Notes: generated by a model from the sequence alone, not told the origin. DNA of 24,000 nucleotides from Candidatus Nanosyncoccus sp. (GCA_045651545.1 JAZRSM010000015.1:26640-50639), one strand, 5' to 3'; shown: positions 11,916-23,523, numbered from the stretch's first letter. A program made the numbers and translations.

Positions 11916-12008
11916 TGGTATAATAAAGTTAGATCGACTGCGGCTCTTGGAGACCAGTCGCTATATTCCTCGCGGTTTTAGGCAGGCGGCTCGTAAAGGG
12001 CCGCTTTT
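11916..12008 (+). promoter_or_regulatory. Phage leader module A: extended -10 promoter + conserved 5' leader + hairpin + intrinsic terminator
   Basis: TGGTATAAT (11916-11924), a 6-nt spacer, then conserved AGATCGACTGCGGCT from 11931. Hairpin arms are CGACTG (11935-40) and CAGTCG (11955-60). The terminator GCGGCTC-GTAAA-GGGCCGC-TTTT spans 11986-12008. Confidence 0.65.
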
Positions 12009-12037
12009 GGTTGAGACAAAATAATCGAGGTGAAAAA

Positions 12038-12430
12038 ATGAAAGACATTTCAACCGAACAATTTGAAGCTATCGTAACGCAGAGGGTGCTCTATCGCTGC
12101 TTGTCGGCCAGCGCCATCCGAAACGGTTTTCAGCGTAACGATCTTATCTTCAAGTCCTCTTACACTGGGAGCGAAGTGCTCCAGGACTACGGTCTCGGAG
12201 AAGTTTGTCAGTGTCAGATGCGCGGTCTGAAAGTCTATCTGTTTCACAAACAGAACAATAGGATCGTGGCAGAGCTTGCGCTTGCGGCCGATACGGACGA
12301 GAAGACAGGGCTCAAAAAGCGACCGCAGTTCTACTTAATCAACCGCAAAGGCTTTGTGAAAAGCCAGTCGCTTGCGAACTTAATCGCGGAGACTGGGAAG
12401 CTGAGCAATTACGAAAAGCATAGGAGGTAG
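12038..12430 (+). CDS. Hypothetical phage protein
   Basis: ATG at 12038 has a GAGGTG SD 6 nt upstream. The tracked TTG at 12011 lies just after the leader terminator and lacks an SD. I recognise no motif. Confidence 0.6.
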   Translation: MKDISTEQFEAIVTQRVLYRCLSASAIRNGFQRNDLIFKSSYTGSEVLQDYGLGEVCQCQMRGLKVYLFHKQNNRIVAELALAADTDEKTGLKKRPQFYLINRKGFVKSQSLANLIAETGKLSNYEKHRR

Positions 12431-12433
12431 CAT

Positions 12434-12793
12434 ATGGCTAACACTATCAAAGTAACTCCTGATGAGAAAGGCCGAGCCATCATCACGCTCTACGGCACTG
12501 ACATCGATGTTACAGACAAAGCAGACAAAAACGGCAAAGGCTTCCTGCACTTCGCAGGTGATGACTACAACTTTGAGATCATCGGAGCCGCCAAACCTAC
12601 CAAGAAAAAGACCGAGAAAAAGGTCAAAGAGGTAGAAAAAGTCGAGATCAAAGAGTTCAATAAAGACGGCTCGGTCGAAGCAGAAGTAGAAGGTGAAGAG
12701 ATGACTCTCACTCCTGGCGATGCGGAAACCGAAGAAGCCGTTGAAACTCTCAAAACTTTAGAGGAAGAGAGGAACGAAAACGATGAAGCTTAG
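12434..12793 (+). CDS. Hypothetical acidic/lysine-rich phage protein
   Basis: AGGAGG SD 6 nt upstream. The ORF is tightly packed, with an 11-nt overlap with the next gene. A low-complexity K/E-rich central segment is present. Confidence 0.6.
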   Translation: MANTIKVTPDEKGRAIITLYGTDIDVTDKADKNGKGFLHFAGDDYNFEIIGAAKPTKKKTEKKVKEVEKVEIKEFNKDGSVEAEVEGEEMTLTPGDAETEEAVETLKTLEEERNENDEA

Positions 12794-13619
12794 CGTTACT
12801 CAAAACAAAATCGAAATCACGGAGAAAAGCATCGTCAACCAGGGCGAATATCACATCACTCCGTGCGAGTTCGAGTTTACTGGCGCTTATGCAGGGCTAA
12901 CCAAGAAAGCGATCTTCACTGACTTGGACAATAACAAAGCCTACGAAGTGCCTATCATTGATGATAAGTGCGACATCCCAGAAAATGTCTTACGAAACAA
13001 AGGCTCCGTTTCTGTCGGTGTTTACGCATACGAAGTCGAAGGCGAAAGTGGCGATGAAACTTTGAAGCTTCGCTACTCCCCAACTCCAGTGCGGATGGTC
13101 GTTGAACTCGGTTCATACAAAACCGATGTAGAAAACCCTAGCGATGTTACTCCTTCGCAGACCGAAATCTACGAGCAAGCCATCCAGGAGAAAATCGGCG
13201 AAGTCAACGCTCTTGAAGAAGACCTTATCGAAAAGCGCGACAGCGGCTATTTCAAAGGCGATAAGGGCGACAAAGGCGATAAGGGCGACAAAGGCGATAC
13301 AGGAGCTACTGGCCCACAAGGCCCACAGGGAGAACAAGGCCCACAGGGCGAGCAAGGGCCACAAGGTGAAACTGGGCCTCAGGGTGCGACTGGCCCACAA
13401 GGTGAAACTGGGCCACAAGGCGCAACTGGTGCCGCAGGTAAAGATGGCAAAGACGGAGCGGATGGAGCGGACGGCTATTCGCCGCAAGTAACGCTCACCC
13501 AGACTACTTCAACCACCGCTACACTAAGCATCACGAGCAAGGACGGTCAAGGCCAGACGGTTACTCAAACCGTTTCCTTCGGCGGAACTTGGGAAGATGC
13601 AGATGAGGAGAGCTACTAA
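12783..13619 (+). CDS. Collagen-like repeat tail-fibre protein
   Basis: 24 uninterrupted Gly-X-Y triplets ([27 protein letters not shown]...[13 protein letters not shown]) lie between a globular N-terminal domain and a short C-terminal domain. The gene is immediately upstream of the DGR target. Confidence 0.8.
13257..13475 (+). repeat. Collagen-like (GXY)n coding repeat with internal tandem DNA duplications
   Basis: GGCGATAAGGGCGACAAA occurs twice in tandem. A roughly 36-bp unit (GGCCCACAAGGTGAAACTGGGCC.CA.GG.GC.ACTG) also occurs twice in tandem. All units are in frame. Confidence 0.85.
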
Positions 13620-21556: not shown

Positions 21557-21564
21557 GAGGCTAG

Positions 21565-23244
21565 ATGGTAAGCTCAAAAGACTACTGGGAAAAGCGAGCG
21601 ATAGAAAAACTCACTGAAGCAGAAATCAAGTCTGAGCCGTATCTCAAGCAAATCTACGGTATCTATACCAGTGCGCAGCGCCAAACTGTCAGCGAGATAC
21701 AACACCTCTATCGCACATACTACGCAGAAAATAAGTGGGACACCACAGCCCTCAACGCTATTGCACCGAGTGGCGACCTAGTGAAGTTCTACAACCAACT
21801 GCGAGCCGCAGGGCTAGACAAGCGACTCCCTGAGCGCTTCAACGGCCGTTTGAGCCGTCTTGAGCTTCTGAACGCTCAACTATGGCTCGAAGCCAAAAGA
21901 GTCGGTCTGAAGCAGAATGAAGTGGAAACAACGGCACATTCTAACACCATTAAGGATGCCTACTACCGCTCTATCTATGACTCGGCCAAGAAGCTCGGTG
22001 CAACGGAAGCCTTCTCTACCTTAGACGACAAGACCGTCAACAAAATACTCCGCACCAAGTTCGCTGGCGCTAACTACTCCGAACGCATCTGGGGTAACAC
22101 TGACAAGCTGGCGGACAGCCTACAAGCGGTCATCGGCAAGGCGGTTGCTCTCGGCCAAAGCCCTGAAGTAACGGCTCGAATGATACGCGAACGCTATGGG
22201 GTGAGCCAGCACGCAGCGATGCGCCTAGTCAGGACGGAAACCAGCTACTTTGAAAACCTCTCCACCGTTGAGGCTTATAAAGAGATGGGTATCGAAAAGT
22301 TCCAGTTCCTCGCTACGCTAGATATGCGCACATCGGACATCTGCCGCTCAATGGACAAGCGCATCTTCTCAATGAAGAGCGCAAAGGTCGGCGAGAATGT
22401 TCCGCCGCTCCATCCGTGGTGCCGTTCAACTATCACGCCATATCTTGGCAAAGACTACAAGATAAATGAGCGCGTGGCGCGAGATCCGTCCAACGACAAG
22501 AACTACTATGTCCAGGGCGATATGAACTACGGCTCCTGGCACAAGTCGCTCGTGGATCGCTTTGCAAACAAACTCAACCATCGCGTAACTATCACTGAAG
22601 TAAGCGATGCAGGTATGGTTGCTACGGACTTCGGAGTAACCTTTGATGCTTTTTCAATGCTTGATATAGACGATGTGCTAGTAGATGAGGTCGCAAAAAA
22701 CGCAGAAGCGTTGATGACTGCTCACCCAGAGCTTCAAGCGTGGGCGAAGAGTCAAGGCAAAGATGGCTTGATCATCAGCGGCGCGAAACCAAGCAAGATG
22801 GGCTATGGCACTATCGCCAGAACTCGTCAATGGCTTTCCAACCGCAAGTCGCCAGAAATCAACCTCAATACACGCTACTACAAGAGCGCCAAGAGGCTTA
22901 GCTCGGAGGTATTCAAGGGTGTCCGTTCCAAGCACTTTATGCCAGCCACGGACTACAAGAACTACACCTTCTACCACGAGTTCGGCCACTTCATCGAAAA
23001 TTATCTTCTACGCAAAGGCAACACGGATGCTGCCGCTCGGCGCATTATGCGTGATATAATTGACATAGCGGTGCGGCAAACAAAAACTGACCGAAACACG
23101 GTGCTGGCACAGGCTTCCAAGTATGCTCGCTCAAAGGCACACGGTCGCGAGTTCTTCGCGGAAGCCTTCGCCAACCTACAAAGCGGTCGGCCGAATGCCA
23201 TAGGCAAGGCGATGAAAACTTATCTTGAAAAGGAGTTGAAATGA
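21565..23244 (+). CDS. MuF/SPP1 gp7-like head morphogenesis protein fused to a C-terminal lethal-factor-like (ATLF-type) zinc metalloprotease domain
   Basis: The MuF domain ends with PPLHPWCRSTITPY (the family PPLHPNCRC motif). The C-terminal domain has HEFGH (22975-22989) and EFFAEAF (23149-23169) 54 residues later, comparable to anthrax lethal factor HEFGH...EFFAEAF. Confidence 0.8.
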   Translation: MVSSKDYWEKRAIEKLTEAEIKSEPYLKQIYGIYTSAQRQTVSEIQHLYRTYYAENKWDTTALNAIAPSGDLVKFYNQLRAAGLDKRLPERFNGRLSRLELLNAQLWLEAKRVGLKQNEVETTAHSNTIKDAYYRSIYDSAKKLGATEAFSTLDDKTVNKILRTKFAGANYSERIWGNTDKLADSLQAVIGKAVALGQSPEVTARMIRERYGVSQHAAMRLVRTETSYFENLSTVEAYKEMGIEKFQFLATLDMRTSDICRSMDKRIFSMKSAKVGENVPPLHPWCRSTITPYLGKDYKINERVARDPSNDKNYYVQGDMNYGSWHKSLVDRFANKLNHRVTITEVSDAGMVATDFGVTFDAFSMLDIDDVLVDEVAKNAEALMTAHPELQAWAKSQGKDGLIISGAKPSKMGYGTIARTRQWLSNRKSPEINLNTRYYKSAKRLSSEVFKGVRSKHFMPATDYKNYTFYHEFGHFIENYLLRKGNTDAAARRIMRDIIDIAVRQTKTDRNTVLAQASKYARSKAHGREFFAEAFANLQSGRPNAIGKAMKTYLEKELK

Positions 23245-23411
23245 AGACTGAGCCATACTTTCTAACAAACGAAGCCTGGTATCGCCTCAAAGAAGGTGGC
23301 TTTGGCTACGAACTCACCCCAGCAGGTCGGAAGATACCTGAAGTGGTGGCGAGCTACGAAGAGTTCTACTCCACTGAACGCGATGATGGCGATGAACTGG
23401 TAGATGCTTGA
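23241..23411 (+). CDS. Small acidic ORF (56 aa) translationally coupled to the MuF-protease gene; candidate immunity/inhibitor protein
   Basis: ATGA start/stop overlap at 23241-23244. Sequence is MKTEPYFLTNEAWYRLKEGGFGYELTPAGRKIPEVVASYEEFYSTERDDGDELVDA. It is below the ORF-track cutoff. Confidence 0.45.
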   Translation: MKTEPYFLTNEAWYRLKEGGFGYELTPAGRKIPEVVASYEEFYSTERDDGDELVDA

Positions 23412-23437
23412 GATATTTTGCTTGACAAGTATTTCTG

Positions 23438-23523
23438 TGTTATAATGTAAGTAGATCGACTGCGACTCTTACGAGTTCCAGTCGTCTTCTTTTTTAGAGC
23501 GGCTCTCGAAGGGCCGCCTTTTT
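23438..23523 (+). promoter_or_regulatory. Phage leader module C: extended -10 promoter + conserved 5' leader + two tandem terminator-like hairpins
   Basis: TGTTATAAT (23438-23446), a 6-nt spacer, then AGATCGACTGCGACT from 23453. Hairpin arms CGACTG (23457-62) and CAGTCG (23479-84) are followed by TCTTCTTTTTT. Then comes GCGGCTC-TCGAA-GGGCCGC-CTTTTT (23499-23523). Confidence 0.65.

Follow-up and report, generated by a model that had tools for sequence, protein, structure and literature searches.

The late transcription units of this phage are headed by cassettes of promoter, leader and terminator that we interpret, at a probability of roughly 0.55, as late-gene antitermination switches: they resemble lambda PR'-tR', with a transcribed, phage-specific motif repeated at each unit. 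The sequence evidence leans to antitermination over short RNAs or a repressor operator. The analysed DNA (the window, 24,000 nucleotides) represents the left end of a prophage carried by an uncultivated Saccharibacteria bacterium and contains three cassettes: A (11916-12008), B (16567-16621) and C (23438-23523). All were found where a preliminary description had placed three modules with TG.TATAAT, a 6-nt spacer, a 15-mer and terminators. Its count of three modules heading rightward operons holds for the window, against five (A-E) in a complete circular relative (~90% identical), where each late unit has one: fibre, packaging, head/tail, baseplate and lysis (holin/endolysin). About 15 related phages carry 3-5 cassettes each, every phage with its own 10-15-nt leader. 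In a shortened prophage island (three assemblies), the genes are intact and both cassettes are kept with int, orf96, gp130, two small ORFs, the fibre gene and the DGR.

Cassettes A, B and C follow a common plan (Table 1): TGNTATAAT, a variable spacer of 6 nt, the 15-mer (AGATCGACTGCG(G/A)CT, exact in all three), and one or two terminators (hairpin and U-tract) before the first gene. Each copy of the 15-mer begins 6 nt 3' of TG(G/T)TATAAT. Upstream of the -10, cassettes A-E have only TRTG(G/T) in common, and the conserved block begins at +1. The putative transcription start was placed at the conserved A of the leader because four leaderless genes in the window show a matching geometry, with the ATG exactly 6 nt past TATAAT; the same start had been proposed in the preliminary description. 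An extra promoter that reads into cassette A overlaps the divergent orf92 promoter (11888-11860, - strand) and abuts an inverted repeat (11814-11837).

Table 1. Positions of cassette elements and neighbouring features in the window
Feature	Position	Strand	Remarks
Leaderless-gene promoters	7444, 5369, 3173	-	
orf92, small protein divergent from cassette A	11497..11775	-	weak winged-helix (DnaD-like) signal
Extra sigma-70-like promoter, TTGAGA-16-TATAAT	11837..11864	+	reads into cassette A; conserved in L156
Cassette A, extended -10 promoter TGGTATAAT	11916..11924	+	geometry as in the leaderless genes of the window
Cassette A, variable 6-nt spacer	11925-11930	+	
Cassette A, conserved leader AGATCGACTGCGGCT	11931..11945	+	putative +1 at 11931
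Cassette A, first hairpin CGACTG...CAGTCG	11935..11960	+	followed by degenerate U-tract CTATATTCC
Cassette A, terminator GCGGCTC-gtaaa-GGGCCGC + TTTT	11986..12008	+	5' arm repeats leader positions 10-16
gp130, first gene behind cassette A	12038..12430	+	novel family, always immediately behind cassette 1 across the clade; trans-factor candidate
gp119, second gene behind cassette A	12434..12793	+	candidate trans factor
Leaderless promoter of the Avd gene	14745	+	
Cassette B, extended -10 promoter TGGTATAAT	16567..16575	+	starts 4 nt past RT stop codon (RT end 16563)
Cassette B, conserved leader AGATCGACTGCGACT	16582..16596	+	positions 10-15 are the terminator 5' arm
Cassette B, terminator GCGACT.CTC-gttat-GAG.GGTCGC + T6	16591..16621	+	covariance-model match 32.6 bits
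Cassette C, extended -10 promoter TGTTATAAT	23438..23446	+	
Cassette C, conserved leader AGATCGACTGCGACT	23453..23467	+	
Cassette C, first terminator AGA.CGACTG.CGACTC...GAGTT.CAGTCGTCT, then TCTTTTTT	23453..23495	+	leader contained in the long hairpin
Cassette C, second terminator GCGGCTC-tcgaa-GGGCCGC-C-TTTTT	23499..23523	+	scaffold gene start 23572

Within the window, AGATCGACTGCGRCT occurs exactly three times, at the leader starts of Table 1 and always on the + strand; further matches to the 15-mer were found only at 3 mismatches, and none on the - strand. A repeat finder independently recovered a 38-nt family of three copies (11911, 16562 and 23433). The 15-mer, previously taken as the conserved element, is so within the window; across the clade, from the sequences compared, it is one allele of a phage-specific leader design without a fixed element (leaders of other phages: AGAATCAATCGCAAC, AAGTCAATGGGCA and ATCTACGAC). 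In each of nine phages, the phage's own 9-15-nt leader was found 3-5 times, on the late strand only and almost always directly after a -10, with zero antisense copies; a search for non-promoter sites, as had been suggested, did not find many. Leaders are identical inside one genome, where the spacer (6 nt) and the interior of the hairpin do vary, and they differ between phages. The 12-15 nt are invariant in the 4-5 paralogous copies of a genome, and across genomes down to ~57% (MuF) to 66% (gp130) protein identity.

In all cassettes, a hairpin with a U-tract lies 30-75 nt past the putative +1. Its form (a GC-rich stem-loop and U-tract, with the stem kept by compensatory change) predicts intrinsic termination. 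In the stems, 89.8% of cells were paired, compared with 68% in shuffles (as high in 0/500), double changes occurred in 7/8 stem pairs and slid controls were 32-54% paired, in a covariation alignment that was fitted to the model and so favours pairing. By these comparisons, the hairpins are under selection as structures. The covariance model of the leader that had been proposed was built: over 489 kb it matched cassettes only, with covarying stems, and an Rfam search at E<=1 gave no relevant match.

The hairpins of the individual cassettes were compared with their first description. The stem of B, given there as 10 bp, has 9 pairs, 6 and 3 on either side of an internal loop (-12.8 kcal/mol, z -2.5), before U6, and the next gene starts at 16637, with 15 nt from the U-tract to the ATG. 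The two tandem terminators of C were borne out (-30.2 kcal/mol, z -3.9; as good in 0/200 shuffles), and many relatives likewise have two at the capsid-operon cassette. The stem GCGGCTC-N5-GGGCCGC is indeed common to A and C, with different loops. The hairpins of A reached a z of only -1.5: CGACTG/CAGTCG is without a proper U-tract, and GCGGCTC-gtaaa-GGGCCGC is followed by U4; in the relatives L005 and L161, the counterpart of the former has TCTTTCTTTT behind it. The CGACTG...CAGTCG pairing exists as described but is not the conserved feature, because in B, D and E it is GGTCGC that pairs with GCGACT.

The leader and the base of the terminator stem are fused, and the conserved part of the leader is a ~9-nt single-stranded stretch together with that base. 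Partial leader copies were found in second terminators (window A and C, L156, the L010 group, L075, L084, L085 and L087); two others have no leader-like copy (L073 and L089/L090), which tells against the antitermination reading. A coordinated change is seen in L156, where leader position 13 has altered along with both arms of the second terminator. The motif is missing from ordinary terminators: the one at 14710 in the window, that of the early leader and the one proximal to attP.

In the complete relative, the early promoter too has a promoter-proximal terminator from which the motif is absent; thus, leaky attenuation may be a general habit of these phages. Furthermore, between phages the information content of the leader is low except at the +1 A, and identity within a genome could therefore partly reflect duplication or gene conversion. 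Both observations count against the antitermination reading. They would suit a quite improbable one without any specific factor, in which the cassettes act as attenuated, leaky promoters or as insulators, the terminator also ends the upstream unit (as it may where RT ends just before B), the identity of leaders within a genome stems from gene conversion, duplication and limits set by the stem base and the initially transcribed sequence, and the timing of late expression is due to genome copy number or to a general, site-independent antiterminator. Such phage proteins exist, P23-45 gp39 reportedly being one. However, the conservation boundaries are sharp: an invariant leader lies between a spacer and a hairpin interior that vary, and gene conversion would have included the spacer. 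Leaky holin and endolysin expression from a constitutive promoter would also harm a lysogen.

Under the antitermination reading, every late transcription unit would begin at a strong, constitutive-looking extended -10 promoter. RNA polymerase would initiate at the A of AGAUCGACUGCGRCU and meet one or two intrinsic terminators within 35-75 nt, yielding a short RNA by default; fibre, packaging, head/tail, baseplate and lysis expression would need a phage-specified factor whose recognition of the leader leads to read-through. Read-through had been claimed to be necessary for the fibre/DGR, packaging and capsid operons. For packaging and capsid genes it would be required, because no other promoter fits between the terminator and the first gene; the claim fails for the avd-TR-RT portion of the DGR, which possesses a leaderless promoter of its own, preceded by an ordinary terminator (14710-14731), and is therefore headed by no cassette. 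Most likely, the factor would bind the motif in nascent RNA and block hairpin closure at each terminator in turn, a mode favoured because the leader is transcribed, forms the flank and first bases of the terminator 5' arm, and is partly copied at most second terminators. Less likely, a DNA-bound factor at +1..+15 would load onto polymerase paused at the U-tract ~32 bp downstream, in a Q-like geometry without the sigma pause.

Recognition in DNA is also the basis of an unlikely alternative, in which 12-15 bp at +1..+15 are an operator for a phage repressor or activator (e.g. orf92) that controls initiation at all late promoters, the terminators being constitutive attenuators or insulators that damp leak. 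In nearly all cassettes the motif does lie at a fixed 6 nt past the -10, and, like operators, it is constant within a genome and different between genomes. In the L010 group, however, the core ATCTACGAC lies anywhere from 7 to 12 nt past the -10, while the motif remains fused to the hairpin, and partial copies are also seen at promoterless second terminators. Strong constitutive terminators, doubled before the capsid genes, would moreover waste most of the transcription for the proteins needed most. The proposed regulator, orf92, is transcribed divergently beside cassette A, where overlapping promoters and an inverted repeat make up a switch-like region, and it is a possible switch regulator; but the motif is absent from the orf92 promoter region, whose inverted repeat is unrelated, and is not palindromic. 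Homologues of orf92 occur in only 5 clade genomes (syntenic in the window phage, L073, L075, L088 and L090). A non-palindromic motif of this length and position could equally be a DNA operator, which counts against the antitermination reading.

The Q proteins of the lambdoid late cassette (PR'-QBE/SDPE-tR') are Q-lambda, Q21 and Q82; AlpA and BrrG (the latter from BaGTA) are Q-like. Lambdoid PR' is described as constitutive and as terminated immediately downstream in lysogens (PMC7547250), and the Q binding element is a conserved promoter site in DNA that lies upstream of +1, within -40..-1 in PR'21 (10.1101/651190). Common to both systems are a constitutive-looking promoter with an intrinsic terminator at once behind it and before the late genes, a short default RNA, and a late switch that would work by read-through and not by initiation (10.1101/651190; PMC7547250). 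Lambdoid phages have one cassette, compared with 3-5 here (one per late unit), and their Q site is upstream of +1, whereas the conserved element here is downstream of it and fused to the terminator. Here, too, no Q-family protein was found, and the first candidate gene lies behind, not before, the first cassette. In 20 cassettes, +1..+30 had no consistently placed TANNNT-type hexamer (at least 4/6 matches). The terminator is the one part of a Q-type cassette that was recognised; a QBE or other promoter-embedded site, a sigma pause element and an adjacent Q-like gene were not found, in keeping with the original caveat that the modules are not Q-type.

As in N/nut, a conserved transcribed element of phage-specific sequence follows more than one promoter, with a single-stranded stretch and then a hairpin. 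However, boxB stands apart from the terminators and precedes them, whereas the only hairpin in B, D and E is the terminator, and nut serves early operons while these cassettes head late ones; a boxA-like sequence was not recognised, nor was an arginine-rich N-like protein, the small ORFs being covered in part. In the BglG/LicT/SacY-RAT, ANTAR and HutP systems, the recognised RNA overlaps the terminator 5' arm, so that binding would stop the terminator from forming, and there is one site per terminator, which fits the partial copies at second terminators. Those systems serve metabolic operons instead of a phage late-gene cascade; an alternative antiterminator hairpin (RAT, dual hexaloop) is not possible in B, D and E, because only ~9 nt precede the stem, and no protein with a cognate domain was found. 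HK022 putL/putR (two copies per phage), conAT of ICEs and EAR are likewise transcribed just past promoters and permit terminator read-through, but they are structured RNAs of 60-120 nt acting without protein, which the ~9 nt before the terminator in B, D and E do not accommodate, and Rfam gave no match to them. RfaH/ops and LoaP resemble the cassettes in that a short conserved 5'-leader element of several operons recruits an operon-specific antiterminator; ops differs in that it works through the non-template DNA strand, at a pause distant from terminators, its consensus GGCGGTAG is absent from the cassettes, and no NGN/KOW match was found in the scanned ORFs.

A prematurely terminated transcript from lambdoid PR' is described as an sRNA, StxS (PMC7547250), and here, too, the short RNA that would end at the terminator behind a constitutively active late promoter could have a role in trans. 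It is very unlikely that such RNAs are the actual products, that is, terminated RNAs of 35-75 nt, five per genome, with a common 12-15-nt 5' seed, which would act in trans on targets in host or phage, or would titrate an RNA-binding protein, their place at operon heads being secondary. A conserved 5' end and a rho-independent terminator make up the classical sRNA layout; the cassettes have a promoter, a conserved 5' seed and a predicted terminator, and with constitutive-looking promoters the RNAs should abound in lysogens. There are five sibling copies, unlike StxS. But no complementary target was found at up to 2-3 mismatches in the window and the complete phage genome. Every copy is also sense-oriented at the head of a late unit that has no other promoter, and late-gene expression would be left unexplained; an sRNA is better seen as a possible by-function of a switch.

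If the cassettes are antitermination switches, gp130 and gp119, two novel proteins whose genes invariably follow cassette 1 directly, are candidate factors, and this position would give positive feedback. In all gp130 homologues examined, a cassette of the phage's own allele is directly upstream, except in L160, for which only a nearer -10-like hexamer was reported. gp119 has a conserved N-terminal beta domain (~55 aa) and a charged tail; neither protein matched any family or fold searched. This lack of matches counts against the antitermination reading, as does the position of gp130 behind cassette 1, from which its expression would need leak or another trigger. Among the ORFs scanned, no Q-like, N, NusG-like (NGN/KOW), CAT/PRD, ANTAR or HutP protein was recognised; further candidates would be a host factor or small early proteins of the zinc-ribbon type. 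Whichever factor is involved, the virion and lysis genes of this prophage would probably be switched on only when a phage factor overrides the stops.

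The 15-mer AGATCGACTGCGRCT was present in exactly three copies in the window, all on the + strand, and any further match there carried three mismatches; a 38-nt family of three copies was returned independently by a repeat finder. TG(G/T)TATAAT stands 6 nt before each copy, in agreement with the three promoter-spacer-leader modules (hereafter cassettes A, B and C) of the preliminary description. The distance from TATAAT to ATG was exactly 6 nt at all four leaderless genes of the window, and the earlier placement of +1 at the start of the 15-mer is therefore sound. Cassette B folded as 9 unpaired nt followed by a 9-pair stem and U6 (-12.8 kcal/mol, z -2.5), so that the U6 described previously was retained and the 10-bp stem was corrected to 9 pairs. 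Cassette C formed two hairpins in tandem, both with U-rich tails (z -3.9; none of 200 shuffles did as well), as expected from the two tandem terminators already proposed. In cassette A the first hairpin lacked a good U-tract, and the second, GCGGCTC/GGGCCGC, had U4 (z -1.5). The conserved element consists of about 9 single-stranded nt and the first 5-6 nt of the terminator 5' arm, together with the 3' arm that matches them. The leader folds differently in A and C, where its CGACTG pairs with CAGTCG and the 5' arm of the second terminator repeats leader positions 10-16. Only 15 nt separate the U-tract of B from the ATG, and the packaging operon can thus have no other promoter.

Features of the window, in order of position (gp130 and gp119, the first two genes behind cassette A; orf92, the ORF divergent from it)
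Feature	Position	Strand	Remarks
Host genes	1-10168	-	XFP-like, adenylate-kinase-like, GrpE, HrcA, LepA, PP-loop ATPase
Rfam match, AsrC	9231-9338		sub-threshold
PP-loop gene	9335-10168	-	
attL	10160-10200		
Prophage	from ~10170 rightwards		
Tyrosine integrase (int)	10334-11230	-	
Direct repeats	11331-11353, 11366-11388		GG(C/T)GTGCTATTTTAGCACGGCAC, 35 bp apart, between int and orf92
orf92	11497-11775	-	92 aa
Switch-like region	11814-11890		inverted repeat ATAGTCTCG-caaaaa-CGAGACTAT, adjoining two overlapping divergent promoters
Promoter into cassette A	11837-11864	+	
Promoter into orf92	11888-11860	-	
Cassette A	11916-12008	+	15-mer at 11931
gp130	12038-12430	+	small unknown gene
gp119	12434-12793	+	small unknown gene
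Collagen-repeat fibre, DUF6273 DGR target		+	
DGR variable and template repeats	14542-14713, 15213-15384		172 nt, 78% identical
Ordinary terminator	14710-14731		
Leaderless promoter of avd	14745		TGATATAAT
Avd	14760-15182	+	leaderless
Reverse transcriptase (RT)		+	
Rfam match, CRISPR-DR	15719-15755		
Cassette B	16567-16621	+	15-mer at 16582
155-aa protein		+	small-terminase position
GT2 glycosyltransferase	17207-18703	+	498 aa
Large terminase, SPP1-type portal, MuF		+	
56-aa ORF	23241-23411		overlaps MuF stop codon
Cassette C	23438-23523	+	15-mer at 23453
GNRA-tetraloop hairpin	23544-23567		CGCU-GCGA-AGCG, then UAAAAUC and Shine-Dalgarno
Scaffold		+	

Judged from this anatomy, late gene expression would logically require read-through of the cassette terminators, and the cassettes are interpreted here as late-gene antitermination switches, with a probability of roughly 0.55. 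The genome IMGVR_UViG_3300037453_000362 (IMG/VR, 36.2 kb; 88-93% identity to the window across the shared late region) has ends that overlap within int and is thus a complete circular genome, hereafter the relative. It carries cassettes A, B and C together with D, an exact 15-mer ahead of the Dit-like, Tal and fibre genes, and E, a diverged copy (AGTTGGCTGCGACT..GGTCGC T6) ahead of the genes for holin and endolysin. Both D and E follow the B type, the leader passing directly into the terminator. With these five cassettes, each late unit, lysis included, opens with a cassette. The exception is the avd-TR-RT unit, in which an ordinary terminator precedes the unit's own leaderless promoter; this order is the normal one and contrasts with that of the cassettes. 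The early promoter of the relative (L011 516-600) also has a strong terminator (GTCGGC-aaaat-GCCGAC T6) within ~55 nt, which does not carry the late leader motif, and the opposite-facing -10 of the attP palindrome likewise leads into a terminator; in this phage, termination close behind a promoter may be the general rule.

INPHARED gave zero match to 13 kb of the window (megablast). In an exact-pattern scan of species genomes, the motif was present in three Candidatus Saccharibacteria MAGs, and one more match, cassette B on the 1.5-kb contig L008 (JAFRIG010000024.1), came from a goat jejunum MAG binned as Erysipelotrichaceae; this assignment is probably a binning error, because the longer motif-bearing contigs were all Saccharibacteria. 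Clade loci (designated by L-numbers) were collected via MuF and via the early resolvase-like protein. Nearly every phage with a MuF at least 40% identical showed this architecture (extended -10, then 6 variable nt as spacer, then a leader starting A(A)GA and an immediate terminator) in 3-5 cassettes per genome at common genomic positions (ahead of gp130, ahead of the terminase genes, between MuF and scaffold, and past the tape measure). The search of related genomes for the 15-mer, suggested in the preliminary description, located the motif in Saccharibacteria, with relatives carrying their own alleles at the same positions. No repeated cassettes of this type were found in the more distant MuF relatives L093-L149.

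The leader alleles were AGATCGACTGCG in the window phage, AGAATCAATCGC in L073 and AGACTAATTGCAC in L086, and phage-specific leaders were as follows: AGAATCAATCGCAAC (L073), A(A/T)AGTCAATGGGC (L074), ATATCAATGACGGC (L075), AGACTAATTGCACT (L086/L088), AGACCAAATACGA (L089/L090), ATCTACGAC (L010 group) and AGATCAATTACGGCC (L158). The motif of each genome lay on the late strand only, nearly always directly past a -10. Within a genome, 10-15 nt were identical and the spacer and hairpin interior varied; between phages only a loose consensus was found, AGAYCAAU then (G/A)CG.., over ~15 alleles that represent a modest number of independent genomes. Such a sharp pattern points to a genome-specific reader of the leader and argues against the absence of any specific factor, which we consider quite unlikely. 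Reverse-complement (antisense or target) matches of each phage to its own leader were zero in the window and the phage genomes, which speaks against an antisense or target RNA there and against short RNAs as the main product of the cassettes, a very unlikely explanation.

The leader covariance model proposed earlier was built from 28 simple cassettes and gave 34 matches in 489 kb, all 34 of them cassettes. In the alignment, which is model-fitted and so favours pairing, 89.8% of cells were paired, versus 68% in shuffles (0 of 500 as high), and double changes were seen in 7 of the 8 stem pairs; slid controls gave 32-54%. Leader position 13 has changed in L156 in step with the two arms of terminator 2, and a degenerate full leader copy stands ahead of that terminator. 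Partial leader copies were found ahead of the second terminators of the L010 group, L075, L084, L085 and L087, and were not found at those of L073 and L089/L090. In the L010 group, the -10-to-core distance was 7 to 12 nt and the core remained fused to the hairpin, and the motif was absent from the ordinary terminators of these phages. Together, these observations link the motif with the terminator and not with initiation, and they weigh against an unlikely alternative, in which the motif is a DNA operator and the terminators are constitutive attenuators. When leaders were anchored at +1 or at the hairpin start, between-phage information was low both ways and did not discriminate.

The logic of the cassettes matches that of the lambdoid PR'-tR' cassette (10.1101/651190; PMC7547250). 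Three of the four defining features of lambdoid Q cassettes (promoter-embedded QBE, sigma pause element and Q protein) were missing: neither QBE-like conservation upstream nor a -10-like pause element was found, and family scans gave no Q protein, which excludes Q-type membership and upholds the earlier caveat that no Q-like gene is recognisable and that the element is transcribed. The ops/RfaH consensus was not in the cassettes. The defining features of nut, put/conAT, RAT/CAT and ANTAR were likewise lacking, and no Rfam match was obtained at the cassettes (all families, E<=1). The cassettes are a variant design, not a member of any named antitermination family.

For antitermination at these cassettes, the most likely route is that the reader would bind the motif on the nascent RNA and keep the hairpin from closing, terminator by terminator. 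A Q-like variant is geometrically possible, in which a protein bound to the DNA duplex at +1..+15 would lie directly behind the polymerase paused at the U-tract, at ~+35. Early regions were mosaic, with almost nothing common across the clade and only the resolvase-like gene shared. gp130 and gp119 were present in every clade genome with the region covered, always as the first two genes behind cassette 1 (cassette A in the window). gp130 had no Pfam, PHROG, NCBIfam or PDB sequence match, and its AF2 model (pLDDT 81; one of five models confident) had no Foldseek match in PDB or BFVD; no sequence relatives of gp119 were found, and its modelled N-terminal beta domain (pLDDT ~85) had no Foldseek match in PDB. 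One 12-mer persists to 66% gp130 identity and a different one occurs at 57-60%, a pattern of sequences compatible with co-evolution, although short of proof. We tentatively suggest that a small novel-fold phage protein (gp130 and/or gp119) might bind the 12-15-nt phage-specific RNA motif, which continues into the 5' arm at each late terminator, and give read-through of one terminator after another at 3-5 cassettes, with positive feedback. On this equally tentative view, Saccharibacteria (CPR) siphoviruses would have an antitermination system not described before, without kinship to Q, N, put, RAT/CAT, ANTAR or NusG paralogues. Three small zinc-ribbon proteins of the relative's early operon are other candidate readers; the sole family signal of orf92 was a weak DnaD-like PHROG match.

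A truncated form of this prophage occurs as an island in a Saccharibacteria contig (L153 8246-16604; also L154 and L155). Cassettes 1 and 2 are both retained there, as are int, orf96, gp130, two small ORFs, fibre, DGR target, Avd and RT; beyond cassette 2 come an IS (DDE transposase) and host genes. All ORFs are intact in three assemblies, and domestication as a DGR island is possible. The island lacks all genes for packaging and the virion and all early genes, which would place the reader within the retained set, in the host or in another prophage.

Further elements were recorded in the prophage. The palindrome CAATGTTATAATTATAACATTG, considered as an early operator, was re-read as the attP core on the ground that its centre coincides with the prophage junction; the apparent form is CAATGTTA-TAATTA-TAACATTG (attP at 505-540 of the relative, L011). 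The phage is inserted in the promoter of the host PP-loop gene, whose -10 in the lysogen (TGTTATAAT, ATG 8 nt later) is made of phage DNA; when the phage is circular, this -10 stands at the head of the early operon. Each direct repeat between int and orf92 contains the inverted repeat GTGCTA..TAGCAC and a promoter-like site TGCTAAAAT (- strand), and the two could be arm-type recombinase sites or operators. The inverted repeat of the switch-like region is kept in L156, with both arms changed. The glycosyltransferase gene (GT2 domain; Stealth CR2 matched below threshold) is unusual cargo for a packaging operon, placed between the small-terminase-position gene and the large terminase, and is not at that position in L156. 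The 56-aa ORF, which ends shortly before cassette C, is kept in L073, L074, L075 and L091 and had no family match. The MuF of L156 (14829-16466) has an additional ADP-ribosylating exotoxin domain (PF03496), like some MuF-toxin fusions. Directly upstream of the scaffold gene, most relatives share the layout of the GNRA hairpin with other stems (CGUG/CACG, CGAG/CUCG, GCC/GGC, GCU/AGC), and this hairpin may serve the capsid operon as a conserved element for translation or stability.

To our knowledge, gene regulation has hardly been described for phages of the Candidate Phyla Radiation, and the host of the present prophage is uncultivated. The cassettes provide a simple sequence signature for late operon starts and transcription units in uncultivated phages, and the phage-specific leader alleles are reminiscent of immunity or specificity groups. 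Lysogens are predicted to contain short RNAs in abundance, with a common 5' end. The element is tiny (~60 bp), and orthogonal switchable terminators would be possible if the factor were found. If the antitermination reading is true, an entire clade of Saccharibacteria phages, found in rumen and human-associated samples, would gain its first regulatory scheme, and a lambda-type switch, in which a terminator stands immediately behind a constitutive promoter, would have arisen or diversified with another recognition principle, a transcribed phage-specific motif for each late unit.
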